From assembly GCA_964354495.1 (NCBI GenBank), contig CAYHAA010000001.1:30001-62000 (forward strand): DNA of 32,000 bases, in the 5' to 3' direction. The notes under the pieces were generated by a model. That model ran no database searches, had not been told where the DNA came from, and worked only from the letters and a program-made list of their open reading frames with translations. Each line of letters starts with the position of its first letter. Within the stretch, counting starts at the first letter, position 1. Of this stretch, positions 4,877-30,905 are shown piece after piece. A program made the translations under genes and the position numbers. The stretch is from an uncultured archaeon. Lineage in GTDB: Archaea; Asgardarchaeota; Thorarchaeia; Thorarchaeales; Thorarchaeaceae.

Positions 4877-5401
4877 TCATGCACTCTGTTGCCAGTGCTT
4901 CAGTTTCTGGAAGACTTGGGCCATTGCCTCTGTCTTCGTCACGTGCTTGTCCACTTCTTCTCGTGAGAGCTCACGAATCTGAGCTGCTGGAACACCTGAG
5001 TTGAGAGTACGCGGCGCTATCACAACATTGGCGGGAACAATGCTCCCCGGTGTCAGCACTACTCCTTCTCCTAATGTAGCGCCATCGAAGATAACGCACC
5101 CCTCTCCAATATAGGCGCTATCACCAATGTATACACCATGAAGCACTGCGGCTGTGCCAATAATCACATTGTTGCCAATGATTGTAGGATTATGTACACT
5201 GTGCGCATGAATGACTGCACTGTCCTGAATACATGTATTCTCACCAATTTTCACTGAAGCAAAGTCTCCGCGAATTACTGCGCCCGGCCACACGCTTGCT
5301 CTAGATCCTACTTCAACATCACCAACGATTGTCGCCTGGACACTCACATAAGCCTTCAAATCGATTCTTGGAGTGTTCTTTCCAAAGGGTAGTACTGGCA
5401 C
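4877..5401 (-). CDS. Gamma-carbonic anhydrase family (YrdA-like) hexapeptide-repeat protein
   Basis: IVGDV, IRGD, IGENTCIQDSAVIH and VLHG motifs. The middle Zn-ligand His (IGH) is Thr83. GTG start with GAGGT upstream. Confidence 0.9.
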   Translation of the reverse strand: MPVLPFGKNTPRIDLKAYVSVQATIVGDVEVGSRASVWPGAVIRGDFASVKIGENTCIQDSAVIHAHSVHNPTIIGNNVIIGTAAVLHGVYIGDSAYIGEGCVIFDGATLGEGVVLTPGSIVPANVVIAPRTLNSGVPAAQIRELSREEVDKHVTKTEAMAQVFQKLKHWQQSA

Positions 5402-14563: not shown

Positions 14564-15259
14564 TCAGTTTAGCTCGTATCTAAACTCGTTGCCTGCTGCC
14601 CACTGAGCTGCGAGTTTCTGGTTTGGTGCCATCACTACTGCCTTAATTCCCTGTCCAAACTGCTCAAGATACTTTGAGAATTTGACAGGCTGTTCTTCTG
14701 AAGTCCATCGCATTGGTATACTGATACGCGGTTTGGCGTCTATGCACAGACTCACCGCATCCTTTACTGGAAATGTGGCTCCTCCACCAATAGGAGTGAT
14801 GAGGATGTCCATTTCCAAGAGTTCGAATGGCCCACGAATTGATGTATCCCCTAAATAGCCAATCTTCATGCCTCCCATCTCAATCATGAGACCGAGATTA
14901 TCAATACGCCCACCTCTCGTTTCATCAATCCTTGAGAGAGCGTAGGGGACAATCCGGATATTGGGTATCTCATAGGGGACTTCATTCTCAAGAACATGAA
15001 GAAGCCAGGGCTTGATTCCCTGTGCAGTAGCTTTCTCAACAGTCTCCTTGTTGCCGAGGAACCACGCCTTTGAGTTCACTGATATCGTGTGTGCGTTTCC
15101 TAACGCGTCATCTTCCTTGTTTGTTGCCACCACCACTCTCGCGTTAAAATCATCTGGGACAACTGGTTCATTCTCCCAAATTCCTGGATTAAGCAGAACG
15201 ACTGCCCCTTTAGATTCTAGTGCAAATGATGTGTGTCCAAAGTAGATGATGTTCAGCAA
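14564..15259 (-). CDS. Metallo-beta-lactamase fold (UPF0173-like) protein with degenerate metal motif
   Basis: IYFGHTSF.LE, YLGDT, LITPIGG and IPMRW scaffold; THxHxDH replaced by TNKEDDA. Likely TTG start at 15259 after GGAAGTGAT. Confidence 0.8.
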   Translation of the reverse strand: MLNIIYFGHTSFALESKGAVVLLNPGIWENEPVVPDDFNARVVVATNKEDDALGNAHTISVNSKAWFLGNKETVEKATAQGIKPWLLHVLENEVPYEIPNIRIVPYALSRIDETRGGRIDNLGLMIEMGGMKIGYLGDTSIRGPFELLEMDILITPIGGGATFPVKDAVSLCIDAKPRISIPMRWTSEEQPVKFSKYLEQFGQGIKAVVMAPNQKLAAQWAAGNEFRYELN

Positions 15260-15500
15260 ACGATCACTTCCCGTCAGTTTCAATAGCACGGTCGCGCCAG
15301 GACTGTTTCTGTCATTGAACCGTTGTGATGATTACTTAAAAGGAAATTGCGACTTTATCCGTTTCTGTCCTGTAGTCGGGCGCGGTTCTCTCTATCTGGA
15401 GCGCCCTCTTCAGGGTCTAGTGCTATCTTTTTATGACTCGGTCCAGACAACGAATCATAGGACTCTGCGTTCTTGTCATTCGGCGGAGAGTGTCGACACC

Positions 15501-16793
15501 ATGCTTGAGAAGATACTTGCTGAGAAGTTTAGGAACACTCTGAAACTTGTGTTTTCAGACATCAATAATCAGCAGGATCGCAGGGATGAGCAGGAATTTG
15601 TCAAGGATGAAGCACGCATCCGGGAAAAACTGCTTGCCAGAATTGACTCATTTCCATCTGATACTGTTCTCAGTGAAGACTTCCTGGTTGCCGCTGTCGA
15701 TGGCTCGGGAACAGAGAGTCTTGTCACTCTTGATGACATTCGAGTGCATCTTTTGAGCACATCCACCATAGTGCTCAACACCAACACTAAGCGTGAGTCA
15801 TTGTTTTCTATGGTGGACCGTGCCACTCTCGAGAATGAGATTGGAGAACAACCCCATATTGATGTGCACTGGCACTCTAGTGTGAGGAATGATGCTAGAG
15901 AGAAGATGGCTGAATCGCTGGCTGAAATATACCCCTTGAAAGATATGGTCAGCATAATCCTACCCTTCTTCTGCGACTATACAGGCGGCAAGATTTCTTC
16001 AGTTACAGATATTGCAGACACTGAGTTCGCGTCATATGGACCACGTCTTCGAGAGATGAGTGAACTCATCTCACGCACACAGACCCTGACAAATGCAGCA
16101 GTCCATGAGGAACTGAGAAAGGTCAGCGAATATGCAGCGGCACGTCGCCTTCTTGAGAGTGACCTGTGTCCAAAGTACCTTCTGCTGGATGGTGCCATGT
16201 CGATTTTCATGCACTTTGTCAGGCACTATCCCTCAATGCCCAGCGGATTCATGCTTAGAGACCTCTGTTTTCTTGCTCGACGAAAGGGTGTGATTCTATG
16301 CGCAGTAAGCAAGAACCATACCATCCCATTTGCTCATCGTATTGCCGGTCTGGCGAAGGAGCAGCTGGGCGAAGGTGCGAAATGGTTCTGCCATCTTCCT
16401 TCCAAAGAAGATCCTGGTGGTGGTCTTCATATCATTGAGGATCGAGCATACATCCCTCCTATGCTGGCTGTTCCCTATCTCTATAGTTTTTCAAGGGATA
16501 ACAGACCATCCAGAATCGACTTTGACAGGGTCTGGTGGTTAGAGAACATTTTCGTTGATGGTGATCCACAGGCAACACGAGAGAACGAATTGGCTCTCTT
16601 CAGAGAGCTTGAGTTCATGTCTAGAGACGCTCGGTGGTACGGCTATCCTGTGGCTCTGGCACTAGCTCATGAGAACTGCAAACTAAGCTTCGAGGACCTT
16701 CGTCTTGCCAAAGAGATAGCGCGAGACGTGCGACTGGAATTAGGATTCGATGATCGTAAGACGGAATCATTGAGGACTGACTACAACCTATGA
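15501..16793 (+). CDS. nurA: NurA 5'-3' nuclease
   Basis: AVDGSG and LLLDGA catalytic Asp motifs, AVSK, R.DF, YGYP.AL..AH. Track start 15246 overlaps the divergent gene; ATG 15501 preferred. Confidence 0.88.
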   Translation: MLEKILAEKFRNTLKLVFSDINNQQDRRDEQEFVKDEARIREKLLARIDSFPSDTVLSEDFLVAAVDGSGTESLVTLDDIRVHLLSTSTIVLNTNTKRESLFSMVDRATLENEIGEQPHIDVHWHSSVRNDAREKMAESLAEIYPLKDMVSIILPFFCDYTGGKISSVTDIADTEFASYGPRLREMSELISRTQTLTNAAVHEELRKVSEYAAARRLLESDLCPKYLLLDGAMSIFMHFVRHYPSMPSGFMLRDLCFLARRKGVILCAVSKNHTIPFAHRIAGLAKEQLGEGAKWFCHLPSKEDPGGGLHIIEDRAYIPPMLAVPYLYSFSRDNRPSRIDFDRVWWLENIFVDGDPQATRENELALFRELEFMSRDARWYGYPVALALAHENCKLSFEDLRLAKEIARDVRLELGFDDRKTESLRTDYNL

Positions 16794-16802
16794 TAATGTG
16801 AG

Positions 16803-18572
16803 ATGATAGTAATGGACTTGGATAGAGAAAAACTGGGTGAACTCTATGGAAAGGTCGGGGTGGGAAATCAGACCTCCCTCGGCATAATGGGGAATAACCG
16901 CGACATAAGCGTGGGCGAGATATTCCTGATCTATTCCAAACGTGATGACCACGAGCGGGTCTTCTTCTTCAGAGTCTTGGACCTAGAGAATTATCTTCGA
17001 CAAGTAGATGACATATCCCGAGTCGCAAGCACGCTCATGGTCGAAGGAGATGCTTATCTCTCAGGTATTGAACGCAATATGCTTCTCTCAGTTGGCGGAA
17101 GAATGCTTGGATTTGCGGAAAAGAACAATAAGGGAGAATGGACTTTCAAGGCTCCGCGGCGCATGCCGGACCATCTGGCCTCAGTGTACCGCCCGATGCC
17201 TGGCCTCTCTGACGAATCTGTACGTGAAATGCTTGAATGTCAGACCGATGGGGAGATCGTCGTTGGCAACCTGCAGGTCGGAGAAGACACTCTCGATGTC
17301 CCTGTCAGAATCCCGTGCAAGTATCTGCCCATGCATGTTGGCATCTTTGGGTCAACGGGTGCAGGGAAGAGCAATCTCATGATGGTCCTCATCAAATCAA
17401 TGATTGACACGAACCTTGATGCAGTCCGCAATCCAAATACTAAAAGCACCAGAATCTCGGCCTTCTGTATTGATCCCCATGATGAATTTGCTAAGGGTGT
17501 CGACAAGTTTGGTATTCAGCGTGTCGTAGAAGATATGAGCGACAAAACGCGTTCCGAGGTGATTGGCGAGTTCTATTATCTAACGACACACAGAAGCGCG
17601 ACTACACGTGAAATTGGCAGGTATGCTCGTGAGATTCGCATTCTGTGGTCTGAGATTCAGCCAAGAGACCTCTACTCAATCATGGAGTTCTCTCCGCAGA
17701 TGTCGTCGTTCATTGATGCGCAGTATGCAGGTTCCAATGAAGATTGGATAGGCAGAATCATCGATATGGATGAAAGCAGTGATGACTCGCAGGGAACCCT
17801 CAAAGCAGTGAAGCGCAGGTTGAGATTCTTGGAACGCTCTCCAATATTCATCAGGGAAGGCAGCTCCATACTTGAGGACATCTACTGCGCCATGGAAACC
17901 GGTCGGATTCTTGTTGTCAACACGAGCCTCATGAGCGACCAAGAGCAGTTCTTACTCACCACAGTAGTCACACGTACACTTTCGGACATGCGTCGAGCTC
18001 TGAAGAGCAGTGGCAATCTCGGCGACTTTGAACGTCAGGGTGAAATGCGGCTCCCGAGGAGTTTCTTCAACCGGGTGAAAGAACGGGCTCGGGCATTCTA
18101 CAGTAAGGGTGGAGGAAGAGACAGTGCTGAGGTCCGTGATCCTCGGTCGCTTCCTGTGATTCAAGTCACTGTGGAGGAGGCACCGACGATTCTGAATCCT
18201 GAGTTGATGCGGGGTCAGTCCGTATTCAAGGATATATCTCGTCAGGGCCGTAAGTTCAACATAGGCCTCCTCGTTGTGAGTCAGCAAGTCAGCGTTCTCG
18301 ATAATGTCATCCTGAGTCAGATGAACACCGAGATCAACCTCAGGCTCGGAAACGAACGTGAGATAAGGGCGTGCATCGAAAACGCCAGTGTGAACATCTC
18401 AGGCTTTGAGAGCGAATTTCGAGTTATGGCTCGTGGTGAGGCCATTCTCACAGCATCATACAGGGAACTCCCCTTGCCAGTTCGGATTCCTCTCTTCGAT
18501 GATATCTATGAAAAGGATAAGCATAGATACAAGGATGCCAAGCCAAAGAAGATGGAAGAGCATATCATGTGA
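16803..18572 (+). CDS. herA: HerA bipolar helicase/ATPase
   Basis: N-terminal HAS-barrel-like region, H.GIFGSTGAGKSN, IDPHDEF, Walker B VEEAP, RQGRKF..GL..VSQ and ILSQMNT.I.LRL. Confidence 0.93.
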   Translation: MIVMDLDREKLGELYGKVGVGNQTSLGIMGNNRDISVGEIFLIYSKRDDHERVFFFRVLDLENYLRQVDDISRVASTLMVEGDAYLSGIERNMLLSVGGRMLGFAEKNNKGEWTFKAPRRMPDHLASVYRPMPGLSDESVREMLECQTDGEIVVGNLQVGEDTLDVPVRIPCKYLPMHVGIFGSTGAGKSNLMMVLIKSMIDTNLDAVRNPNTKSTRISAFCIDPHDEFAKGVDKFGIQRVVEDMSDKTRSEVIGEFYYLTTHRSATTREIGRYAREIRILWSEIQPRDLYSIMEFSPQMSSFIDAQYAGSNEDWIGRIIDMDESSDDSQGTLKAVKRRLRFLERSPIFIREGSSILEDIYCAMETGRILVVNTSLMSDQEQFLLTTVVTRTLSDMRRALKSSGNLGDFERQGEMRLPRSFFNRVKERARAFYSKGGGRDSAEVRDPRSLPVIQVTVEEAPTILNPELMRGQSVFKDISRQGRKFNIGLLVVSQQVSVLDNVILSQMNTEINLRLGNEREIRACIENASVNISGFESEFRVMARGEAILTASYRELPLPVRIPLFDDIYEKDKHRYKDAKPKKMEEHIM

Positions 18573-18575
18573 GGT

Positions 18576-19892
18576 TTGAAAATGTCCGCTCGAATTGCTC
18601 ACATCTCTGATACCCATCTGGGAGCCCGACCTCGAGATGGTGTTCGCCCCAATGTATGGGGTCAGGAGATGAGAACTCAGCTCTTGGAGAATGACTTCTA
18701 CGAGCGATTTGCTGAGATTTTCGAGAGGATTGCTGCACTCGATCCCCCTGTTGACTTGGTAGTCCACTCAGGAGATCTCTATAACTCCCCATGGGAGGGC
18801 AACCCGTCACAGCCCCCTGTTGTCGCTCAGGAGACTGCAATATCTGTGCTTCAAAACTTCATCAAGAAGACGCACATTCCTGTCCTAGTAATCGAGGGCA
18901 ATCACGGTCTCTACAGGCTGCTTGAGGTTTCTCTCTTAGATAGCCTCAAGATGGCAGTGCCCGGATTGGATGTTGCAACCCAGCAAGACATCAAGGCAGC
19001 GATTCGTGAGGATAAGCCGTTAGTGTACTCCTACGAGAAACTGGATGTGTTTTGCTTTCCCTTCATCGACCATGAAGTGCTGCGGTCATCAGGCATGCTT
19101 CCTAGGTTTGATGATTGGATTCTTACCCAGCAGAAACGGGAACGCCTGCGACCAGCAGTTGGCGTAGCTCACGGTATGGATTTGGACAAGACCCTGTACG
19201 ACGCAATGTTCAGTATGAACTACGACTACATAGCTCTCGGTCACGACCATAAACAGGCGAAACAGTCACAAAAGGCATGGTATGCAGGTTGTCCTGAGAG
19301 ATGGCGGTTCGATGAATCCGATCATGAGAAGGGATTCCTAGTCGTCGATATCAAGGTCAATGAAGATCCAGTTGTCACTCCATACATCCTCGAGTTTGTG
19401 CGTCCCGTACTGAATGAGAAGATTGTGCTTGCTGATGATGATACAGCTGAGTCTGTTACAGAGAAATTGCGCGCCTGGTTCTCTGAGAAGGGTCTCATTG
19501 CTCCTTGGGATTCACACACTGCTGGACGAGTTCGTATTGTCTTGGAGGGCGGCTCGAGCCGTGTGGGCGCTTTTGACTTGGGCGTGGCCCTCGAGACCTT
19601 CAGATTGAAAGTGCTCTCACAGGACTCGGAGTACAATGTGGCTCAGTTCGTCTGGTCCGCCAAGGAATCGGTTGATTCTGAGTATGTTGCAGCATCATAC
19701 CCTGAGATTGAGTCCGAATATCTGATTGAGGACCCGGAAAAGGACTTCCGTGACTATCTCAGCACGCTGGAAATCGACAAGAGTCTGGATCTCGATATTC
19801 TCACCAAGATTGCTGTCACTTCTCTTGAGTTCGCAGTCGGAACCAGAGATGGGAAGATGACCTCCGAGTCGCTCACGAGGGATGATCCATGA
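18576..19892 (+). CDS. mre11: Mre11/SbcD nuclease
   Basis: HISDTHLG, HSGDLY, GNHG, AHG, YDYIALGHDH, YAGCPER and EKGF motifs. Start TTG 18576 or ATG 18582. Confidence 0.92.
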   Translation: MKMSARIAHISDTHLGARPRDGVRPNVWGQEMRTQLLENDFYERFAEIFERIAALDPPVDLVVHSGDLYNSPWEGNPSQPPVVAQETAISVLQNFIKKTHIPVLVIEGNHGLYRLLEVSLLDSLKMAVPGLDVATQQDIKAAIREDKPLVYSYEKLDVFCFPFIDHEVLRSSGMLPRFDDWILTQQKRERLRPAVGVAHGMDLDKTLYDAMFSMNYDYIALGHDHKQAKQSQKAWYAGCPERWRFDESDHEKGFLVVDIKVNEDPVVTPYILEFVRPVLNEKIVLADDDTAESVTEKLRAWFSEKGLIAPWDSHTAGRVRIVLEGGSSRVGAFDLGVALETFRLKVLSQDSEYNVAQFVWSAKESVDSEYVAASYPEIESEYLIEDPEKDFRDYLSTLEIDKSLDLDILTKIAVTSLEFAVGTRDGKMTSESLTRDDP

Positions 19893-21970
19893 AGCTCTTG
19901 AAGCTAGAGGTTCACAATTTCAAGCCATTTCGGGAGCTGACTCTACCAAGTGATGAATCTGATCTCCCAAACGGGCTCATAATTATCCGAGGTCCAAACT
20001 CCACTGGAAAGTCATCTCTTTTTGAGTCGATACTCTGGGCTCTGTGGGGTTCAGACTCATTGGGACTGAATAATGATGAACTCGTCAGTTTCAGTTCGAC
20101 ATACTGCAGTGCCACTCTGACATTTGATGTGGCTGGAGCCCAGTATAAGATAGAGAGGTCATACAGTTCTGCAGACAAGACAAATGCAGTACTCTACATA
20201 AGGTCTGGGCGTGCTTGGAAGAGAATCGCCGACAAGACTCAGTCCGTTGCAGCGAAGATAGACGAGATTCTAGGCTTGGAGTGGAAACAGGCTCAAAACA
20301 CGCTCTTGGTCCGCCAGGGAGAGGTTGCAACGATATCTACAGCTGGTCCTGTGGCGCTTCGAAATCTCTTGGTCGAAATCTATGATATTGAGCTGCTCAA
20401 TCGCATGTCCAGTCATCTTGAGAATTTCGAGTCGAATCTTGACACGAGAATCAAGAATCTCCGTGATGACTATCGCTCACCTGAGGACATCAAGGAACAG
20501 ATAGGTCAGAATAGAGCACGAATCAAGGACTATGAGGCATCGATAAAGAGTCGAAGTAAAGAGATAGTTTCAGTTGAGAAGCAGCTAAGGGGTATCCCTG
20601 ATAGTGCCACACTGAAGACAGTCCGCAGAATATCTGATGAGATCGAGAGGAAACAACATGAACTTGATCTCAGTCAGAAAGAGATTGAAACGAATCTTCC
20701 GCAGGCAGGCATACTCGATGCTGAAACTGCAATCATCGAGGCCCGTTCAGAATCACTCAAGAGAGAGAAGGAGCGAGTAGACTCAGAGCGAGAGGGCCTG
20801 AACGCTGATGTGACAGGCATCTCTGAGAAGATGGGCAAGATCTCTGGAATGCATGAAGATTTGAACGAGAAAATAGACATGCTCACTAGAGCTCGTGATG
20901 GCAAGGATGAGGCGGTTTGCCCTACCTGCTCGAAACCTCTGTCAGCAACGGAGCGTGACAGTCTTGTGTCTAACTACAAGAAGGCAATGCGCGATGGTGA
21001 ACTAGGTGCTAGAGAGCTTGACAAAGAGCGGAAGCTGAAGATAATCGAAGCCAAGAAGCTCGAGCAGAGGCTTTCTGCCATCTCTCTCTCCACTAATGCA
21101 TTGCAGAAGATAAAGTCAATTCAGGAACACATGCAGAGCATACGACTGTCCATCAAGAAGTCCGAACAGGAACTCTCAGACCTGCTTAGGGCCTTGGACA
21201 TTCCTGATGTGAAATCTCTTCTCAAGAAGTTCGGAGTATCAACGCTTGAGGAAGTCCACAATAAGATTGGCAACCTGGAAGCTGTTCTTCGAGAGGCAAA
21301 GAGAGGGACCTCCGAAATCGAAGAGAACATTCGAAAGGAACAGACGCTCATCTCAGAACTGGAAGGGAAAGAAGTCCAGATGCGACAGATGGGTGCTGAG
21401 ATTAAGGAACTGGAAAACCTCAATGTGCATGCAAAATACGTACGTCGGAATCTTGTGAACGGATTTGTCGCAGATTACGTCTTTCAGAAGAGACTGATTG
21501 GCATCATCAGGAGTGCAACGAATCAGTATGTGCAGTCCTTCACAAACGGTCAGTACACACGCATCGACCTCGAGCCCACTCCAGCCACAAAACGTTCTGG
21601 TGCTGGGCTGCTTCTCAAGATATGGGATGAACGCGACCAGGCATGGAAGAAGACCTCACAGCTCAGCTTTGGAGACCGGACTGCAATCAGTCTCGCGCTT
21701 AGACTTGGAATCAGCCGTACTATGAGCAGAATTCGTCCCCTGAAGAACAGCCCCATCATCACACCTCGCGTCAAGACAGTGATGCTTGATGAGCCGCTCG
21801 GAGGGCTTGATAAGGCTCGCAGGGAGTCCGTGGTTTCTAATCTGATGAATGACAGCAATTTCAAGCAGATTCTATTGATCACACACACCGATGTGCAGGG
21901 ATGGGAAGGTGTTCCCATTGTTGAAGTGGCCAAGGCTGGTCTGGGGAGCACTGCAACTTTGGAGCTGTGA
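19889..21970 (+). CDS. rad50: Rad50/SbcC SMC-like ATPase (short)
   Basis: NFK, Walker A GPNSTGKSS, Q-loop VRQGE, central Zn hook CPTC (residue 344), variant signature LSFGD, Walker B MLDEP, D-loop LD and ITH. ATGA overlap with mre11. Confidence 0.93.
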   Translation: MKLLKLEVHNFKPFRELTLPSDESDLPNGLIIIRGPNSTGKSSLFESILWALWGSDSLGLNNDELVSFSSTYCSATLTFDVAGAQYKIERSYSSADKTNAVLYIRSGRAWKRIADKTQSVAAKIDEILGLEWKQAQNTLLVRQGEVATISTAGPVALRNLLVEIYDIELLNRMSSHLENFESNLDTRIKNLRDDYRSPEDIKEQIGQNRARIKDYEASIKSRSKEIVSVEKQLRGIPDSATLKTVRRISDEIERKQHELDLSQKEIETNLPQAGILDAETAIIEARSESLKREKERVDSEREGLNADVTGISEKMGKISGMHEDLNEKIDMLTRARDGKDEAVCPTCSKPLSATERDSLVSNYKKAMRDGELGARELDKERKLKIIEAKKLEQRLSAISLSTNALQKIKSIQEHMQSIRLSIKKSEQELSDLLRALDIPDVKSLLKKFGVSTLEEVHNKIGNLEAVLREAKRGTSEIEENIRKEQTLISELEGKEVQMRQMGAEIKELENLNVHAKYVRRNLVNGFVADYVFQKRLIGIIRSATNQYVQSFTNGQYTRIDLEPTPATKRSGAGLLLKIWDERDQAWKKTSQLSFGDRTAISLALRLGISRTMSRIRPLKNSPIITPRVKTVMLDEPLGGLDKARRESVVSNLMNDSNFKQILLITHTDVQGWEGVPIVEVAKAGLGSTATLEL

Positions 21971-22030: not shown

Positions 22031-24298
22031 ATGGGCACTGAGATTGCGAATGGGTCTCGGATTGCGAGGTCGGTTCACCGAATTGATCACATGCTCCTTC
22101 AGGGTGGACGTCGTCTGTCACGATTCCTCACCGAGTATCGCTATCTCATCGCAGTACTATTGATTGGCTTCGTGGTCTGGTCTGTTGTCTTCAATATTGC
22201 AATGGTTGACTATCTGAACACTCGTTTCTGGAATTCACGAAGTGCATGGCTAGGTCCACTCCCCGGTCCTGGCGAGTTCAACTTCTTTGGATACACTATA
22301 CAGTACCAGTTCGAGGGCTACAGCGATTATTCGTTCTACTATGTTCACTGGGGATACAACATGCTCAATGGAGTCATGCCATACTCAGGGGACTTTGGCT
22401 ATCTAGACATGGATGGGATAGTCAACGAGAATGGCGCTTACATGTTTCCGCCTCTTACAGCCTATCTATATGCTCTTGGCATTGCTCTGGAAAGAATAAT
22501 TGGGCCGGGAAACTGGGGAATTGGGCTCCTCTTCGCAGTATTTGGCTATACCACCATTCTTCCAGTGTACGGAATTGCAAGAGAGCTATCGAAGAATCCG
22601 AGAATAGGGGAGATCGCAGCTCTAATGTACGCGATCAATCCCCTAGTACTCTATCATATTGACTATATTTGGCTCAATCCAGCACCCTTCTACTTCTTCT
22701 TCTTTGCAGGATTCTATGCTCTCCTGAAGAAACAGCGGCATACTGCAACGATACTCATAGTGACTGCTGCGCTCTTCAAGCAGACTGCGTGGTTTCTCGG
22801 AATTCCCCTTGTCATCTACCTACTGGTTCGAGCTCGCGACAGGAAGACGAAGGTCACTGAGGGGACTGGCCTGAACGGCTATGACAATGGTGTGCTCGAT
22901 GATGACGGGAAGGAGAAGCCAAGAGCTAGAAGATTCGACTTCCTGTTTGAGTACTTCGATTTTCGAGGCTTCGGAGTGAGTGTCATTGTGGCGCTCTCCT
23001 ATGTAGGTGCAATCATGCTGCCCTTCATTCTAGCGCAACCAGACTTCCTCAAATTCTGGTCATTGGCACTAGGTCATTTTCCCTTAGACAATTATGTGGA
23101 CCCACCAGCCTACAATGTCCCGGTAAGATTGCCTGTCCTTCCCATCATGAACAATATGCCTGAGTTTGCGGAGCTCTTTGATTTTGCTATCATTACACAA
23201 GGTCCGCTCTTTTTTGGAATCGTCGTATTTGCAGGACTGATGCTCCTCCTTGACAAGTACAAGGGCGAAGAACATGTGTATCTGCGTCGAATTCTCTTCC
23301 TCACAATGCTTCTCATGCTGTGGACCGATCTGGCTGGGCCTCGGGGAGTCTTCAAGTACTACTTCGCGATGTTTGGTCCCTTCTTCGCGATTCTCTCGTC
23401 GGCTCAGATGATTCGTGGAAAAGGAGAGCATGTGCCATTCTCAGCTTCAATGATATGGATGCCAATCCTATTCTCACTCCTTATCTTACTTCCCGACCGC
23501 AACTACTACCTTGGATATGTCCTCCTGATCTTCATTTCATACTCCTTATCGCCCCTGTTTGATCGACTCTACGGTCTCATCAAACGTCCCTTCTCCTACC
23601 TGAGGACTCTCCTGGCACGCCATCTCAGTCTACGTTTCGGAACTATCCAAATTCATGGGTCGACTCAATCCCTATCGCTCAGCACGTTGCGAAGGATTAC
23701 CGTTGTTGTGTCTATGGTGTGCGGCTCTGCGCTTCTAGTACTGGGCATGTCTGTGTGTTTCGACCGATTGACCGCATCCCTTGCAGTCATCATACAGTCC
23801 ATGCTGTTGATGGGAGTCATGGTCTTCGTGGGTATGCAGATTATCTCAATAGCAGGCAACGGGCTTCTATCAGAACAGGCGCGACAGAGTGATTTCAACT
23901 ATGTCGTTCGGACACTGTCATTCACGTTGGCAGCTGTTCTCTTTATCTTTGGAATCGATACCTACGTTCTTAGCTGGGCTGTTGGTGGCCCTCTCGAGAG
24001 CCAGCTCATGATTGTTTCTAGTATGTTGATAATGATGTGGGCCCTAGGACTTGTGATACGTATTGCGAACAGACCCAGACTATTGTCGGATATCTTTCTC
24101 ATCTTGGGGTGTGTCATCGGGACTTGGGTCTGGTATTCGCTTGGAGACGTCTTGTTCATGCTTCTCGGGTGGACTTGTATCGCAGGACTGGTGGTCCATC
24201 TCCTGCTGACCATTGGCACTGTTTTAGGTCAACGTGCCTCTGTGGAACCTAGAACCATCCCCGTGCTTCCGAATGCGGCAGAGTCAATGACAATCTAG
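22031..24298 (+). CDS. GT-C fold integral membrane glycosyltransferase (GT87/PIG-M-like) with extra C-terminal TM bundle
   Basis: First-loop EGYSDY..YY..WG...L.G..PY, Y.FPPL..Y, Y..NP, A.LFKQ and KYY motifs; many hydrophobic segments. Confidence 0.75.
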   Translation: MGTEIANGSRIARSVHRIDHMLLQGGRRLSRFLTEYRYLIAVLLIGFVVWSVVFNIAMVDYLNTRFWNSRSAWLGPLPGPGEFNFFGYTIQYQFEGYSDYSFYYVHWGYNMLNGVMPYSGDFGYLDMDGIVNENGAYMFPPLTAYLYALGIALERIIGPGNWGIGLLFAVFGYTTILPVYGIARELSKNPRIGEIAALMYAINPLVLYHIDYIWLNPAPFYFFFFAGFYALLKKQRHTATILIVTAALFKQTAWFLGIPLVIYLLVRARDRKTKVTEGTGLNGYDNGVLDDDGKEKPRARRFDFLFEYFDFRGFGVSVIVALSYVGAIMLPFILAQPDFLKFWSLALGHFPLDNYVDPPAYNVPVRLPVLPIMNNMPEFAELFDFAIITQGPLFFGIVVFAGLMLLLDKYKGEEHVYLRRILFLTMLLMLWTDLAGPRGVFKYYFAMFGPFFAILSSAQMIRGKGEHVPFSASMIWMPILFSLLILLPDRNYYLGYVLLIFISYSLSPLFDRLYGLIKRPFSYLRTLLARHLSLRFGTIQIHGSTQSLSLSTLRRITVVVSMVCGSALLVLGMSVCFDRLTASLAVIIQSMLLMGVMVFVGMQIISIAGNGLLSEQARQSDFNYVVRTLSFTLAAVLFIFGIDTYVLSWAVGGPLESQLMIVSSMLIMMWALGLVIRIANRPRLLSDIFLILGCVIGTWVWYSLGDVLFMLLGWTCIAGLVVHLLLTIGTVLGQRASVEPRTIPVLPNAAESMTI

Positions 24299-24309: not shown

Positions 24310-25824
24310 ATGTCCACAAGGAACGAATCCCATATCGCTCGACTCGAAGCTCTTGCGCGCGCGAATATAGTCCTGATTCTCATCCTAGTGGTAGCTGCTA
24401 TTTTTTGGGGCTTGGTCTTTGCATGGTCCGCCTCCGATTTTGTCGCAGATGGGAGCCGACCATTCAGGGGGGTTTGGGGTGGCGTGGGTTCGTTTGATCT
24501 ATTCGGATATACTGTCTATTACGACTTTGAGGGTTATGTGGACTACGACTATTACTACTACTCGTGGGGTGAGCGATTTCTTAGCGGCATTGCTCCCTAC
24601 TCGGACACATTCGACAGGACCTTCGTAGATGGAACCCCGTGGAACACACCATACTTCTTCCCACCACTCTATGTCTATATGTGTGCATTCGGCCTGGTCT
24701 TGCCTATCGACCCCTTTGGAATCGGATTCATCATCAGCCTCTTCGGATATCTCACTGCATTTCCGATATATGGTATCAGTGCCTTTCTAGCGCAGAACAG
24801 AAGGGTTGGTGAGATATCCGTTCTCACGTACCTATTCAGTCCACTGGTGCTCTTCTACACCGCATTCAAATGGCTCAATCCAGCACCCTTTGTGTTCTTT
24901 GTGATGCTGTCATTCTATCTCTTGATGAAAGGTAGAAGGCTTTCGGGGGCTCTTGCTATGGTGACAGCCGCACTCTTCAAGCAGACCGCCTTCTTTCTAG
25001 CCCTTCCACTTATCGCCTACATTATGAAGAGGGCTCCAGCGAAACAGCCTGAAATCGTTGGTGGCAAGAGACCTCCCGGTGATGAACTTGACTTGAAAGG
25101 ATTTGCCAAGATAGTTCTGGCTGTTCTTGTCTATTTAGCGGCCGTGTCTCTGCCATATCTCTTTGATTTTCAGAATTATCTCTACTACATCTTTCAGCGA
25201 CCAGGCGGCTTTCTACTAGAAGACCTCACCAGTCTTCCCGATGTGTCCCAGCCGATATCACCGGCTGTCCTCTTGATTTTCTTAGGCGCACCAACCTGGT
25301 TGGTCGACATTGTGAATAAGGCGACATACTACAGTATCTTTCTAGCCATTTCCATGCTCACGCTTCTAGTCTTGATGTTGCTTCAGATTAAGGATGACAG
25401 CAAACTCCCAGCGTACTGGCGCCGTTTGTTCTTCCTCACACTACTTCTCATGCTCTGTATGCATGTCTTTTCACCGCGGGGAATGTACAAGTACTACTGT
25501 GTCGCATTGATCCCATTCTTTTCCATACAGTCTGTGTCAAGTATGATTTCAGTGAAGAAGCAGATAGTGAAGCCATCGTTATTCATGTTGTTAAATCCAA
25601 TATTGTTTGGGCTCCTGATTCTAATACCCAATCGCTATGTATACATCGCATTCATAATTCTCATGCTTCTGGGATACATCTGCCATAAGCAGTTCTCGCT
25701 CGTGCAAGAGGTCGCAAGTAACTGGCTACGAAGACGCGTACGCGCTCTCAGACAGTCGATATCAAGAGGCAGAGACCTCCCCGTCACTGCTGTGCAAGAA
25801 GATGAAGCTAGCCTTCCGCCTTGA
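24310..25824 (+). CDS. GT-C fold integral membrane glycosyltransferase, paralog of the upstream gene
   Basis: EGYVDYDYYY.SWG..FL.G..PY, YFFPPLYVY, WLNPAPF, ALFKQTA and PRGMYKYY. SD AGGAGGTG upstream. Confidence 0.78.
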   Translation: MSTRNESHIARLEALARANIVLILILVVAAIFWGLVFAWSASDFVADGSRPFRGVWGGVGSFDLFGYTVYYDFEGYVDYDYYYYSWGERFLSGIAPYSDTFDRTFVDGTPWNTPYFFPPLYVYMCAFGLVLPIDPFGIGFIISLFGYLTAFPIYGISAFLAQNRRVGEISVLTYLFSPLVLFYTAFKWLNPAPFVFFVMLSFYLLMKGRRLSGALAMVTAALFKQTAFFLALPLIAYIMKRAPAKQPEIVGGKRPPGDELDLKGFAKIVLAVLVYLAAVSLPYLFDFQNYLYYIFQRPGGFLLEDLTSLPDVSQPISPAVLLIFLGAPTWLVDIVNKATYYSIFLAISMLTLLVLMLLQIKDDSKLPAYWRRLFFLTLLLMLCMHVFSPRGMYKYYCVALIPFFSIQSVSSMISVKKQIVKPSLFMLLNPILFGLLILIPNRYVYIAFIILMLLGYICHKQFSLVQEVASNWLRRRVRALRQSISRGRDLPVTAVQEDEASLPP

Positions 25825-26998
25825 ATTGTTCAAGCTCTTTCTCTTTCTTCTCTATCTTCTTCCCTATACTAGCGATTCTAGCGTTTAGATTCTCCATCTG
25901 TTCGATGTAGGTTTCTTTTGGCATGGCTCCAGATGCATACCTCTGTTCAATATGCTCGCAGAGCTGCTCAACTGATTCTGTCTCTTTTAATAAGGATCTG
26001 ATGTCTGCCTCAATATCTGCAGCCCTATTCTCCTCGGGAGTCTTGAACTGCTTTGCTGGCATCATGACACCCAGTTGCTCTTGCGTCTTCTCCGCAAACT
26101 CTTGGAACTGACCTCGTAAGGACTCAATATGAGACTCAACATTCCCGACCTGTTCATTCAGCTTGGAGATGTCTTTCTGGAGGTCAAACACAGCATTGAC
26201 CAGCCTTCTGAGTGTCTGTTCGAATTCCGCTGTAGGTACAATATCTGCCTCTGCCAGCTCCCCTCTTGCCTTGGCACTCTCTGTCTTTGTTTGCTCCTTG
26301 GCAGCAGTGCTGAGCTTTGTCGTCTGCAATTCTCCGCTCAACCACTTGAATGCGCTTACTGCAAAGGTCGTATTTCCTTCGTGCTTCAAACCACCGCCCC
26401 TTCTGAAGATCTCATAGCTCCCAATGCATATTATACGGCCTTTTCCAGCCTCTGCAGCTGCAACAATGGGCGCCTTACTTGGCTCTGCCACCTCTGATGT
26501 CCGTGCTAGAGTAACTGCCTTGCCACTGACATGAAGACTGCAGGCCGAAGGAATGAGCAGTTCCTTCACGTTCTCGGTTGTCGGATGAGCGGCAATGTCT
26601 TTGATGATTGGCATGGTGGGAATCCCAGCGTTATTCCTGTCATCCTTGACTGCTGTATTATCGAAGGCGATCCCAAACTCCTGTGATATCTGTGACATAT
26701 TGTTCATGAGGCCTCTATCGCCTCCTGAGAGTGATAGCAACATCAGACCGCCCCCATTCTTGACGTACTTCTGCAGGACATCTATCTCAGTAGGTCGTAC
26801 TTTGGAGCTATTCGGACATCCGAATACCAAGACATCCGCTTCTTTAAGATTCTTGGCAAGAAGCATGAACTCCGTATAGGGTTCCACGTCAAAGTCGTTG
26901 TCCCTCAGGATTTGACCCAGTTCAGAGTATGTACTGTCCAGCTTTCCACGCTCGTTTTGTGTCTGGTCGAAGTAAACCTTTGGTCTTCTTCCGCTCAA
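25808..26998 (-). CDS. GIFT (GldG/IFT52)/DUF4350-type GATase-like domain + coiled coil + C-terminal helical hairpin
   Basis: VYFDQTQNE, L..ADVLVFG.P, EIDVL.KYV..GG.L, N...I...FGI.F, G.GRII.IGS and N..F......WL. Heptad-rich C-terminal half. Likely TTG start at 26998 because the track start overlaps the HIT gene. Confidence 0.75.
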   Translation of the reverse strand: MSGRRPKVYFDQTQNERGKLDSTYSELGQILRDNDFDVEPYTEFMLLAKNLKEADVLVFGCPNSSKVRPTEIDVLQKYVKNGGGLMLLSLSGGDRGLMNNMSQISQEFGIAFDNTAVKDDRNNAGIPTMPIIKDIAAHPTTENVKELLIPSACSLHVSGKAVTLARTSEVAEPSKAPIVAAAEAGKGRIICIGSYEIFRRGGGLKHEGNTTFAVSAFKWLSGELQTTKLSTAAKEQTKTESAKARGELAEADIVPTAEFEQTLRRLVNAVFDLQKDISKLNEQVGNVESHIESLRGQFQEFAEKTQEQLGVMMPAKQFKTPEENRAADIEADIRSLLKETESVEQLCEHIEQRYASGAMPKETYIEQMENLNARIASIGKKIEKKEKELEQFKAEG

Positions 26999-27117
26999 GA
27001 GGATGCACCCAAGTAACCTATTATTCTGATTCGGGTCAATCACGCTAATTAGACTTGTGCGCACGTCACTCAAGCACTTCGAATTCTTTATTTTGCTCTT
27101 ATTCGAAGTACCTGAAC

Positions 27118-27546
27118 ATGAGTTCAAAGGATTGTATCTTCTGCAAGATTGTTCAAGGCGAGGTGCCATCCTCGGTGGTATTCCAGGATGACATCTGCAT
27201 GGCCTTCATGGATGTCTTTCCAATAACGGCCGGACACTGTCTACTCATACCGAAGAAGCATTTCGTTAACATGATGGATGTTGACCATGACGTTCTGTCT
27301 CACATGTCTGTGAAACTATCAGAGCTGACAAAGGCAGTATCGAAAGTGACTGGAGCAGACGGTGTACTCAATGTTGTAGCAAATGGCGAAGGAGCTGGGC
27401 AGGACGTGCCACACCTGCATTTTCATGTGATTCCAAGAAACAACGCCGACCCATTTGGTTTCAAGTTTCCACCCGGGTATCACGATTCAATGGCTCCGCG
27501 AGACGAGTTAGATCGGATGTCCAAACGGATTAGAAAGTCGCTTTAG
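27118..27546 (+). CDS. HIT family nucleotide hydrolase
   Basis: DCIFCKIV, GH.L.IPK.H and AGQ.VPHLHFHVIPR. ATG at 27118. Confidence 0.95.
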   Translation: MSSKDCIFCKIVQGEVPSSVVFQDDICMAFMDVFPITAGHCLLIPKKHFVNMMDVDHDVLSHMSVKLSELTKAVSKVTGADGVLNVVANGEGAGQDVPHLHFHVIPRNNADPFGFKFPPGYHDSMAPRDELDRMSKRIRKSL

Positions 27547-28070: not shown

Positions 28071-30905
28071 ATGACCTTAATGAAGGATGAGATACCGACA
28101 GATGATAATCAGTCTTCATTAGAGGACTTCCTCGGAGCAGAAGAGGCCGAGGCACCTCCTGCACCTTCTGCAAAAGGATCTCGAGAGAAGAAAGCAGCCG
28201 CATCTAGTCGAGGCACTCCTCTGGAACCGCCTACATCAACTCCCCTCCCAGAGACTCAGTCAACAAACGATGAGGAGGAAGAAATAGTCGAGGAGGATGG
28301 CGAAGAACCATCAATTCACGTCAATATTGGAGAAATGGACAAACCAAAGGAGTTGCCTCCCTCCTTTCTCCTATCCATAGATTACTCTGGCCCATTAAAC
28401 AAGGCGGTTGCTAGGCTGTATGAGCCGAAATCGAAGAGGGTCTATTTCTGGATCGATAGTACAGGGCATAAGCCATTCCTCTATACTGACTGGCCGCCAC
28501 AAGTTGTTGAATCAAAGGTGCGAGGCAATCCTGGGTTTGTGAGGACCGAAACTGTCCAGCTTCATGATCTCTTGCATGATAAGCAGGTGACGATGACCAA
28601 ACTCATTGGTGACAATCCTCTCAGCATTGGTGGCGGTGCTGCATCGATGAGGGAAAAGCTCGTTGATGCGAACAATGTTAGTCATGCTTGGGAAGCCAAC
28701 ATTCGATATCATCTGTGTTATACGTATGATACGGGTCTTGTTCCCGGTCTGATGTACAAGATAGAGCGGGGAAAGCTGATTGCATGCCAGCCTGATGTGG
28801 ACACAAAGATCCTCAATGAGTTCAAAAAGACAATCGCTGATGAAGAGGGTCTCGAGTCTATCATATCTACGTACTCCCCCATGTTCTTCACTGAGGTTCC
28901 GGACATCAAGAGAATCGCTCTTGATATCGAGGTCTACACCCCGGTCGTCAATAGGGTTCCGGACGCTCGGGTGTCTCAATATCCTGTCACAGCCATAGGC
29001 CTATCCGATAGCGATGGACTCAATCAGTGTTTCGTACTGCGTCGAGCTGGACTATCAGATGGAAAGAAGAGCAAGGATTTCCCCAAAGAGCTTGAAGTAG
29101 CCTTCTTTGATGACGAGAAAGAAATGTTGGTCGAAGCCTTCAAGATCATTGACAGGTATCCAATTGTACTGACCTTCGTTGGAGACACTTTCGATCTCAA
29201 ATATCTCTACAACCGTGCGAAGCAACTGAGAATTGATATGGACAAGTACTGCCCAATTGTAATTCGCGGCAACCAAGACCCACGAAGAGAGCAGGCCGAT
29301 CTGAAACGTGGAATACACGTTGACATGTACAAGTTCTTCACCAACCCCTCAATCAAGGTCTATGCACTCTCAGGAGCATATCAACGTGAGAATCTGGACA
29401 CCATTGCCGAGGGTATTCTGGGTGAACGAAAACTCAAGCTGAGCGACAACATCTCTGCATTGTCTTACTATGAACTTGCTCATTACTGCTGGCTCGATTC
29501 GAATCTCGTCCTCAGATTCACAAAGTATGAGAACAACCTGCTGCTTCGGCTCATCGTCCTTCTCATGCGTGTCTCTAGGATGTCAATGGGTGAGGTCACT
29601 CGATTCTACATCTCCTCTTGGATTCAGTCACTGTTCAGGCAGGAACACAGAGCACATAGCCAGCTTATTCCACGACGTGTCGATATTGATACAGTCAAGC
29701 AGTCTGACGCCCAAACTGAAGCATTGATTGGCGGGAAGGCCTTCAAGGGCGCCATTGTGATTGAGCCTGTGGCTGGCGTGCATTTCAAGGCGACAGTGCT
29801 AGACTTCGCCAGTCTATACCCAACAATCATGAAAACGCACAATATCAGCTACGAAACGATTGACTGCCCCCATGAAGAATGTAAGAATGCAGGTGATAAT
29901 AGGGTTCCGGAGACCGATCACTGGGTCTGTAAGAAACGACGAGGGATGATCAGTCAGACGATAGGCTTCTTCCGGGACACCCGCGTGAAGTGGTTCAAAC
30001 CCAAGAGTAAGGACCGAACATTGGATGAACGTACAAGGAACTGGTACTCGGTCGTGGAGAAGGCATTGAAGGTGTTCGTCAATGCATCCTATGGTGTCAC
30101 GGGCGCCAGACATTTCGAGCTCTTTTGCATGCCCGCTGCAGAAAGTACCACTGCCTTTGGGCGCGATGCCATTCAGCGAGCCAAGGCAAAGGCAGAGGAA
30201 ATGGGAATCAGGGTGCTCTATGGTGACACAGACTCTGTCTTCCTGGACAATCCGACAAAGGAGCAACAGAAAGAATTGGTCCAGTGGTCGCGAAAAGCTC
30301 TTGGAATAGACCTTGAAGTTGAGAAGACCTACAAGTATGTCGCGCTCTCAGATAGAAAGAAGAACTACATTGGTGTCTACACAGATGGGAAGGTGGAAGT
30401 CAAGGGACTAAGTGGGAAGAAGCGGAACACACCAGACTATGCCCAGCAGGCATTTAGAGAGATGCTCGAAGTACTGAGTCGAGTTGATGATGCAGAGGGA
30501 TTCGAAACAGCAAAGGCTGGAATACGTCAAATCGTGAATCGTGTCATCGATAGGCTTGAAGGGAAGGCTAAAGACTACACTCCTGAGGAACTGGCCTTCC
30601 GAATTCAAATCACGAAGCGTCTGTCTGAGTATCCTACTGACATGCCGCACGTCAGAGCAGCAAAGATGCTGGTTGAGAAGACGAAAGATCCCAATAGAGT
30701 GCTACCTGGGACAATCATTGAGTTCATCCGAATCAAAGGGCCAGGTGGTGTCCTTCCAGTTGAACTTGCCAAGCAAACGCCCTATTGGGTAGACAAAGAC
30801 GTGTACATCGACATACTGAGGGGCGTCTTCGATCAAGTCTTAGACTCTTTAGGCCTTGACTTCAGCGAGTTTCTTGGTTTCACCACCCTAGACAAGTTTT
30901 TCTAA
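28071..30905 (+). CDS. polB1: Family B DNA polymerase, archaeal PolB1 type
   Basis: Exo I LDIEV, Exo II F.GDTFD, Exo III YCWLD; pol A DFASLYP, pol B K...N..YG, pol C YGDTDS, KKNY. N-terminal layout (W.D.TGH.P, WEA.I.Y...Y.YD..L.PG) is PolB1-like. Confidence 0.93.
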   Translation: MTLMKDEIPTDDNQSSLEDFLGAEEAEAPPAPSAKGSREKKAAASSRGTPLEPPTSTPLPETQSTNDEEEEIVEEDGEEPSIHVNIGEMDKPKELPPSFLLSIDYSGPLNKAVARLYEPKSKRVYFWIDSTGHKPFLYTDWPPQVVESKVRGNPGFVRTETVQLHDLLHDKQVTMTKLIGDNPLSIGGGAASMREKLVDANNVSHAWEANIRYHLCYTYDTGLVPGLMYKIERGKLIACQPDVDTKILNEFKKTIADEEGLESIISTYSPMFFTEVPDIKRIALDIEVYTPVVNRVPDARVSQYPVTAIGLSDSDGLNQCFVLRRAGLSDGKKSKDFPKELEVAFFDDEKEMLVEAFKIIDRYPIVLTFVGDTFDLKYLYNRAKQLRIDMDKYCPIVIRGNQDPRREQADLKRGIHVDMYKFFTNPSIKVYALSGAYQRENLDTIAEGILGERKLKLSDNISALSYYELAHYCWLDSNLVLRFTKYENNLLLRLIVLLMRVSRMSMGEVTRFYISSWIQSLFRQEHRAHSQLIPRRVDIDTVKQSDAQTEALIGGKAFKGAIVIEPVAGVHFKATVLDFASLYPTIMKTHNISYETIDCPHEECKNAGDNRVPETDHWVCKKRRGMISQTIGFFRDTRVKWFKPKSKDRTLDERTRNWYSVVEKALKVFVNASYGVTGARHFELFCMPAAESTTAFGRDAIQRAKAKAEEMGIRVLYGDTDSVFLDNPTKEQQKELVQWSRKALGIDLEVEKTYKYVALSDRKKNYIGVYTDGKVEVKGLSGKKRNTPDYAQQAFREMLEVLSRVDDAEGFETAKAGIRQIVNRVIDRLEGKAKDYTPEELAFRIQITKRLSEYPTDMPHVRAAKMLVEKTKDPNRVLPGTIIEFIRIKGPGGVLPVELAKQTPYWVDKDVYIDILRGVFDQVLDSLGLDFSEFLGFTTLDKFF

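Follow-up and report, generated by a model that had tools for sequence, protein, structure and literature searches.

A soluble protein of 396 residues is encoded in the window, the whole 32,000-nucleotide stretch of DNA analysed, in which a GIFT head closely similar to the N-terminal domain of IFT52 is followed by a linker, a long stalk helix and a C-terminal helical hairpin. Tentatively, and with slightly more doubt than confidence, the protein is interpreted as a cytoplasmic, Asgard-wide scaffold with the build of a Vps23/Vps37-type ESCRT-I subunit (head, linker, stalk and steadiness box, SB) in which the GIFT domain occupies the place of the UEV head. We accordingly refer to it as a putative GIFT-headed ESCRT-I-type trafficking adaptor, a description that we consider plausible.

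Gene boundaries and solubility of the protein

The longest open reading frame at the locus spans 25808..27169 on the minus strand (453 aa), and its first 57 codons were judged to be spurious. Reading of the sequence together with an alignment of homologues placed the start codon at the TTG at 26998-26996, the column at which Met opens 11 homologues, MSGRR (MSGRRPKVYFDQ). A start at the ATG at 27169 was rejected. The extension that it would add is kept only in two very close relatives and would make the open reading frame overlap the HIT gene at 27118..27546, which is divergent from the GIFT gene and has its ATG at 27118. On the account of the Met column, the GGGTG upstream of it and the overlap of the long form with the HIT gene, the GIFT gene was set to 25808..26998. 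The resulting features are as follows.

25808..26998, minus strand: whole coding sequence of the GIFT-stalk-hairpin protein, 396 aa plus stop, from the open reading frame list and the homologue alignment
26999..27169, minus strand: spurious 5' extension of the longest open reading frame, outside the protein
27006..27010, minus strand: GGGTG, Shine-Dalgarno-like, 7 nt upstream of the TTG, read from the sequence
26321..26998, minus strand: GIFT domain, residues 1-226, IFT52N-like, with a class I glutamine-amidotransferase-like fold
26231..26320, minus strand: linker, residues 227-256, with a short helix at 232-249; length and sequence vary among lineages
26072..26230, minus strand: long stalk helix, residues 257-309, LRRLVNAVFDLQKDI...FQEFAEKTQ, helical in the AlphaFold2 model and with columns invariant in Thorarchaeota
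25814..26038, minus strand: C-terminal helical hairpin, residues 321-395, with the turn motif RYASGAMPKETY, steadiness-box-like by AlphaFold2 and hhalign

The GGGTG is a candidate ribosome-binding site. The first strand of the head (VYFDQ) starts at residue 8 of the 396-residue protein, and the residues before it are strongly hydrophilic, with neither a signal peptide nor an anchor detected from the hydropathy of the corrected start. Over the whole protein no membrane helix was found, the maximum Kyte-Doolittle value over 19-residue windows being 1.25. The preliminary description, which had taken the protein to be cytoplasmic with a domain beginning shortly after the likely start and no signal peptide, was thus borne out, and no signal or transmembrane segment appeared at the true start.

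The head is a GIFT domain closest to that of IFT52

The Pfam model IFT52_GIFT (PF23355) matched the protein from residues 6-115 onward at 59.5 bits (E 3.5e-16, cut-off 27.2), a model that is wider than IFT52 orthologues since bacterial and other metagenomic proteins pass it too. A six-frame scan of the genome likewise placed the protein above this cut-off. Three other models fell under their cut-offs in the same protein, namely ABC_transp_aux (PF09822, GldG-like, 27.1 bits with a cut-off of 34.7), ThuA (27.5 bits with a cut-off of 33.4) and DUF4350 (PF14258). The top three sequence matches in the PDB were all IFT52 (Chlamydomonas 5fmr at E 1.6e-12, 8bd7 chain B and mouse 5fms). Within the host genome (3.3 Mb, 97.7% complete) a profile of eukaryotic IFT52 had the protein as its only strong match at 73.9 bits, the next reaching 22.8.

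Structure prediction agreed with these matches. An AlphaFold2 model built from an alignment of 88 diverse homologues had a mean pLDDT of 90.4, with values of about 98 over residues 1-226; it replaced an earlier model (pLDDT 61.7) made from a 12-row alignment of the over-long open reading frame. In a Foldseek search with the model IFT52N was the best match (E 1e-19, TM 0.86-0.91), followed by OST48 (E 4e-11) and ThuA-like proteins (about 1e-8), and the GATase-like domains of glycosidases are further structural relatives. The similarity to ThuA-like proteins and to the luminal domain of OST48/Wbp1 is much lower than that to IFT52N, and OST48 is moreover luminal and membrane-anchored. The three-dimensional fold of the N-domain of IFT52, a core subunit of IFT-B1 (PDB 5FMR, 5FMS and 8BD7 chain B; PF23355) is therefore present in the head, and the resemblance is real and close. 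The initial assignment of the head to a GIFT domain resembling that of IFT52 is supported, IFT52N being its nearest solved and Pfam relative.

Distribution of the family

Metagenome-assembled genomes of Thorarchaeota and Sifarchaeia contain over 300 close homologues (383-412 aa, 66-91% identity), which are annotated as 'hypothetical', as 'DUF4350' or, wrongly, as 'prefoldin subunit 5'. PF23355 scored above its cut-off in 276 of 301 sampled Asgard genomes, covering 30 families, and in 0 of 14 control genomes. The family is conserved and near-universal in Asgard genomes.

Searching 1.84 billion cluster representatives with the head only gave 1036 relatives at E <= 0.001, and these fell into three groups. 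Eukaryotic IFT52 was absent from the best 150 of the 1036 and ranked lower. Group A is the clade that holds the GIFT-stalk-hairpin protein; most of its members are 330-570 aa long with helical tails, and named members come from Lokiarchaeia/Promethearchaeia, Helarchaeota and Ranarchaeia. Group B, a second GIFT clade found in Loki/Hel, is short, with lengths of about 310-430 aa. The mixed group C contains, among others, secreted multidomain proteins of bacteria (Ignavibacteriota, Zixibacteria; T9SS and PKD modules), and several of its proteins equal or exceed the 59.5 bits of the GIFT-stalk-hairpin protein on PF23355.

The bacterial GldG (PF09822), DUF4350 (PF14258) and secreted GIFT proteins belong to the same superfamily and have the D, E, G-G, N and C-S columns in common with the head. 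These bacterial proteins lie outside the cytoplasm or are surface proteins of several domains (T9SS sorting, PKD, choice-of-anchor D and subtilase fusions). Unlike GldG, the GIFT-stalk-hairpin protein is cytoplasmic, carries a helical tail and is not adjoined by an ABC transporter, none having been found among the neighbours of the GIFT gene in 21 loci. A GldG-type role was rejected on the account of the missing anchor, the missing transporter neighbour and the PF09822 score of 27.1 below 34.7.

The tail resembles the stalk and steadiness box of ESCRT-I

The linker was modelled with a pLDDT of 56-76, falling below 50 at residues 252-255, and is little conserved in the alignment. The hairpin helices (residues 321-355 and 361-395) were modelled with a pLDDT of 94-97, and within Thorarchaeota the tail is conserved to the same extent as the head. 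The GIFT-linker-helical architecture 'like IFT52' that had been proposed for the protein held for its soluble GIFT head and failed for its C-terminal half. The latter had no similarity to the central and C-terminal parts of IFT52 (hhalign probability 0.1%), and PF23352 and PF21178, which are present in eukaryotic IFT52, did not match the protein at Pfam E values up to 1. While the two heads are alike, IFT52 continues with an IFT88/IFT70-binding stretch and an IFT46-binding C-domain (PF23352, PF21178), and the GIFT protein with its stalk and SB-like hairpin.

Similarity was found instead to ESCRT-I subunits. For this comparison an N-hairpin profile was made from Asgard Vps28 proteins gathered with PF03997. 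The tail hairpin (...RYASGAMPKETYIEQ...) aligned to the Asgard Vps28 N-hairpin (...SYESGIIDASTYQKQ...) with an hhalign probability of 81.9% (E 1e-5, 57 columns) and the turn motif in register, compared to 4.1% for the reversed template and no more than 0.6% for 30 column shuffles. The C-terminal half aligned to the stalk and SB of Asgard UEV-Vps23 at 70.5% over 108 columns, stalk on stalk, the turn motif again being in register; Vps28N aligned to the Vps23 SB as a positive control gave 92.3%. When the six-frame open reading frames of the host genome of at least 60 aa were scanned with the Vps28N profile only two matches were obtained, an SB-EAP30 protein at C1:68851-69660 (E 4e-14) and the tail of the GIFT protein (E 0.002). 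In most group A representatives the hairpin forms the very end of the chain; some group A lineages have other helical tails in which no hairpin is detectable, which speaks against reading the family as adaptors.

The ESCRT-I subunits with a stalk and steadiness box (Vps23/TSG101, Vps37, Asgard UEV-Vps23, the Vps28 N-hairpin and the Znr_PH_CC_SB family cog.011556 of Makarova et al. 2024, PMC10936438) share their chassis with the GIFT protein, a globular head, linker, stalk helix and C-terminal hairpin, and the hairpin turn motif [YF]-x-x-G-x-[IMV]-x-x-x-[TD]-[YF] is common to the ESCRT-I SB and the GIFT protein. What sets the GIFT protein apart from the ESCRT-I SB proteins is the head, which is a GIFT domain and not a UEV, PH or zinc ribbon domain. 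The likeness of the tails appears at the profile-profile level, the Pfam models Vps23_core, VPS28 and Mod_r being blind to the tail, and SHOCT was not among the Pfam matches listed. A ten-sequence tail profile run with HMMER against the PDB and Pfam retrieved generic coiled coils only, yeast Vps28 chains in the PDB reaching E 0.6-0.7. The probabilities of 70-82% concern short helical segments, which along with the generic coiled coils at the HMMER level counts against an adaptor. Homology between the hairpin and the steadiness-box hairpins of ESCRT-I Vps28/Vps23 is supported at the level of profile-profile comparison, for which probabilities of this size are suggestive, not proof.

Position relative to ESCRT genes

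An ESCRT-II/III/Vps4 locus (Vps25, Vps4, Snf7) lies at C1:68851-72395, just past the end of the window and 12 kb from the GIFT gene, with about ten unrelated genes in between. Its first gene (C1:68851-69660) encodes the 270-aa protein detected above, a fusion of an SB hairpin with an EAP30/Vps22 domain. The UEV-Vps23, Vps28 and Vps22 genes of a second Asgard family are 5-6 kb from its GIFT gene, the cluster UEV-Vps23/Vps28/Vps22 being followed by a zinc-ribbon gene, a further gene, PolB and, divergently oriented, the GIFT gene. Thorarchaeota have the same zinc-ribbon gene, its neighbour and PolB on the same side of the GIFT gene. In other lineages the genes are unlinked, the GIFT gene and Vps28 being 57 kb apart or on separate contigs. 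The vicinity of ESCRT genes in two Asgard families favours an adaptor role, but the linkage is loose at 12 kb and absent in other lineages, and this argues against it, as does the replication and housekeeping nature of the immediate neighbours.

Pfam models for UEV, ubiquitin, VPS28 and Vps23_core had no match in the 97.7%-complete host genome. The result is in line with the study of Hatano et al. 2022 (PMC9192718), which also reports that a clear Vps37 is lacking in Asgard archaea.

Proposed mode of action

The protein may act like an ESCRT-I subunit of the Vps23/Vps37 type, with its hairpin and stalk packing with the hairpins of other SB proteins. For the host genome the candidate partner is the SB-Vps22 (EAP30) fusion encoded in the ESCRT locus at 12 kb, and for the second Asgard family Vps28 and UEV-Vps23, whose genes are 5-6 kb distant. 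The UEV head, which binds ubiquitin, would be replaced by the GIFT head, and the latter would bind some partner or cargo, probably via a conserved pocket at the C-terminal strand ends (D11, E71, G92-G93-D94, N100, D119, C153-S154). As Thorarchaeota are without ubiquitin and UEV, a recognition head directed at something other than ubiquitin would make sense.

Relationship to the GIFT domain of IFT52

In IFT-B the IFT52 GIFT domain is a hub at which the TPRs of IFT88 and the coiled coil of IFT57/38 dock (PMC9753473). The relationship between this domain and the archaeal head was evaluated with trees built on the trimmed GIFT domain, about 230 columns, in which the eukaryotic IFT52 sample was small (8-10 sequences, mostly green algae, fetched with a 62-residue Chlamydomonas IFT52 segment). 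Four trees resulted in three different placements of IFT52. With FastTree it joined group B, and with a quick IQ-TREE LG+C20 search of 90 rows it joined group A (SH-aLRT 95). In a careful 90-row tree it fell weakly (48/62) with long, compositionally odd bacterial branches. A careful LG+C20 tree of 46 rows, the best-behaved set, made without those branches, separated group A and IFT52 from groups B and C at 92/100. The trees did not have the domain branching far from IFT52 among generic archaeal DUF4350 proteins, the outcome that would have undercut the resemblance first noted.

In AU tests on the 46 rows neither the placement of IFT52 outside group A (p 0.355) nor its placement with the bacterial set (p 0.236) was rejected. 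The hhalign scores of IFT52 were 228 against group A, 215 against group C and 171 against group B. Groups A and C scored 438 against each other, so that IFT52 is more distant from group A and from the bacterial/other set than these two are from one another. With 1.7-2.0 changes per site the stem leading to IFT52 is very long, too long for 230 columns to settle where IFT52 belongs.

The group A family might on these data be the direct archaeal ancestor or the sister of the IFT52 GIFT domain, and itself a trafficking scaffold acting as the hub of a coat-like transport complex, which we regard as possible but doubtful. The careful 46-row tree and the quick 90-row tree agree in its favour, but the placement shifts to group B with FastTree and to bacterial branches in the careful 90-row tree, and both AU alternatives stand. 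IFT52N is by far the best solved match and the protein is the sole strong match to the IFT52 profile in its genome, yet several group C proteins reach the same level on PF23355 or exceed it (74.7 and 69.3 bits) and hhalign separates group A from the bacterial/other set by little (228 and 215). At the level of single columns, E16 and S194 are common to group A and IFT52; GG[D/E], T99 and N100 are common to group A, group B and IFT52 and occur in only about a third of group C. The protein is also cytoplasmic like IFT52, whereas the bacterial forms are secreted. Against these likenesses stand the unrelated C-terminal halves, the length of the IFT52 stem and the small eukaryotic sample.

Descent of the IFT52 domain from this family is compatible with an ESCRT-I-type adaptor, and both can hold. 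The most far-reaching combination is that an ESCRT-I-type subunit with a GIFT head fills the 'missing Vps37' position (in Thorarchaeota that of Vps23), that the IFT52 GIFT domain descends from the cytosolic Asgard family and that the IFT-B core and ESCRT-I adaptors share an archaeal trafficking ancestor; taken as a whole this appears distinctly improbable.

Conserved residues of the head

D11, E71, D94, N100, D119, C153-S154 and N209 are near-invariant polar residues in the Asgard and bacterial groups, and G92-G93-D94 is invariant. In IFT52 D11 is variable, D119 is replaced by R and C153 by A, so that D119 and C153, both conserved in the GIFT-stalk-hairpin family, are missing there. The residues D11, E71, G92-G93-D94, N100, D119 and C153-S154 point to a conserved pocket that may be used for binding or catalysis. 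Features of class I amidotransferases were not found: ThuA was below its cut-off, and the segment after strand 84-88 reads L-S-G-G-D with no Cys nucleophile. By the order of secondary structure elements the S-G-G-D segment probably sits at the nucleophile elbow after strand 4.

The invariant polar residues would fit an enzyme or a small-molecule binder equally well, an observation that goes against the adaptor interpretation. The head would then be an enzyme or a binder of small molecules or glycans from the ThuA/class I amidotransferase-like superfamily, and the tail would only oligomerise or localise it. We consider this unlikely. The alteration of three of the near-invariant residues in IFT52 is what would be expected of an ancestral site that was lost there, but the canonical Cys-His-Glu triad is absent and S-G-G-D takes the presumed nucleophile position. 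ThuA-like proteins, GATase-like glycosidase domains and OST48 of the oligosaccharyltransferase are among the structural relatives of the head, although the ThuA, ABC_transp_aux and DUF4350 models all stay under their cut-offs and we know of no GIFT-group member with catalytic activity. Two large multi-TM proteins of unknown family adjoin the gene throughout the Thorarchaeota family; their genes are convergent with the GIFT gene and not co-transcribed. Finally, the tail is conserved as strongly as the head, which points to specific protein partners.

Replication and housekeeping neighbours

The immediate neighbours of the GIFT gene are replication and housekeeping genes that differ by lineage (TrmI and B3_4 in others). 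PolB is divergently upstream in Thorarchaeota and in the second family. In two families the next gene downstream on the same strand, after a gap of 13-35 nt, is an ATP-dependent DNA ligase, and in a third family the gap to the ligase is 113 nt. Within the window HerA, Mre11 and Rad50 also lie near the GIFT gene. It is highly unlikely that the hairpin serves generic oligomerisation (SHOCT-, prefoldin- or CdvA-like) and has no part in ESCRT, in a protein working with these flanking replication and repair genes: the positions of PolB and of the ligase, the nearby HerA, Mre11 and Rad50 and the generic coiled-coil matches of the tail with HMMER agree with it, but the neighbours vary by lineage and are core housekeeping genes prone to cluster, no GIFT protein is to our knowledge involved in replication, and the in-register Vps28/Vps23 hairpin match, well above the decoys, would be left unexplained.

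Novelty and meaning of the GIFT-headed architecture

In the searchable open-access literature no paper was found that joins Asgard archaea with IFT52, GIFT, GldG or DUF4350. In their survey of ESCRT, Makarova et al. 2024 (PMC10936438) make no mention of a GIFT-headed stalk/SB architecture, and the ESCRT literature examined contains no mention of GIFT, IFT52 or DUF4350. What is new is the GIFT domain on an ESCRT-I-like chassis, each part being of a known kind separately. Should the ESCRT link fail, what stays is a conserved Asgard family that is at present annotated as 'hypothetical', 'DUF4350' or 'prefoldin subunit 5'.

Through its tail the protein ties an IFT52-like head to the assembly logic of ESCRT-I, that is to a stalk and steadiness box. 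Group A has members in cultured Lokiarchaeia, which makes the idea open to experimental testing. As Asgard archaea have been reported without an equivalent of Vps37, and Thorarchaeota without ubiquitin and UEV, a GIFT-headed SB protein could be the missing cargo-recognition or assembly subunit.

Gene neighbourhood of the GIFT gene in Thorarchaeota

Two genes for multi-TM proteins that are paralogues of each other were found downstream of the GIFT gene and convergent with it, in an arrangement that is kept across the whole Thorarchaeota family. The GIFT gene shares its last 17 nt with the nearer of the two, and neither product had a Pfam match at E 0.001.

Window 22031-24298, plus strand: multi-TM protein, 755 aa
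Window 24310-25824, plus strand: multi-TM protein, 504 aa

Genes of replication and repair were also located around the GIFT gene. By its gene content, one operon resembles the DNA end-resection clusters of archaea, as HerA, an Mre11-like protein and Rad50 are grouped together, and the gene for PolB adjoins the GIFT gene itself.

Window 15246-21970, plus strand: operon encoding a 515-aa unassigned protein, HerA (DUF87), an Mre11-like phosphoesterase and Rad50 with a zinc hook
Window 28071-30905: PolB, 944 aa

The PolB orthologues adjoining the GIFT gene in two related genomes are longer, at 1396 and 1697 aa (loci L021:c1 and L022:c1), and this size gap suggests intein insertions. Elsewhere in the window, two matches fell under the cut-off, namely a weak adaptor-complex medium-subunit match (E 6e-4) in a DUF11 protein (12700-14487, minus strand) and a dynactin-subunit-5 match in a hexapeptide-repeat protein (4877-5401, minus strand).

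Neighbours in other Asgard families, and fusions in metagenomic relatives

A gene for ATP-dependent DNA ligase lies 3' of the GIFT gene in three further Asgard families, reading in the same direction at gaps of 13-113 nt, and is followed by a gene for a conserved protein of ~190 aa that had no Pfam match. The three genes may form an operon in these families. In a second Asgard family the GIFT gene is adjoined convergently by a gene resembling ARPC4 (Arp2/3 complex subunit 4).

L030:10847-12631, L031:10975-12768, L032:10979-12772 and L034:10894-12651, strand of the GIFT gene: ATP-dependent DNA ligase
L024:11159-11764 and L025:8272-9042: ARPC4-like protein, PF05856 above cut-off

Among metagenomic relatives (P0210, P0237 and P0218), the GIFT domain was observed in fusions with a C-terminal Rad60-SLD ubiquitin-like domain, with TPR repeats and with a subtilase.

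ESCRT locus and another candidate steadiness box protein

The Thorarchaeota ESCRT locus lies outside the window in the same genome. Its first gene encodes, as one fused product, a steadiness box (SB) hairpin resembling the Vps28 N-terminus (residues 22-99) and an EAP30/Vps22 domain, and is followed by Vps25 (minus), Vps4 (minus) and Snf7 (plus). No Pfam match to a separate VPS28, Vps23_core, UEV or ubiquitin was obtained anywhere in this genome.

G000:C1:68851-72395 (L040:6851-10398): ESCRT locus
G000:C7 (L041:1688-2497): zinc-ribbon coiled-coil protein, 269 aa

When the genome was searched with a profile of the GIFT protein tail, the top non-self match was the zinc-ribbon coiled-coil protein (E 1e-5), which carries an N-terminal zinc ribbon and, besides its coiled coil, the hairpin-like motifs GTLDKDVYEEQ and GDISRETYESS. 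This protein may be a further SB-type protein.
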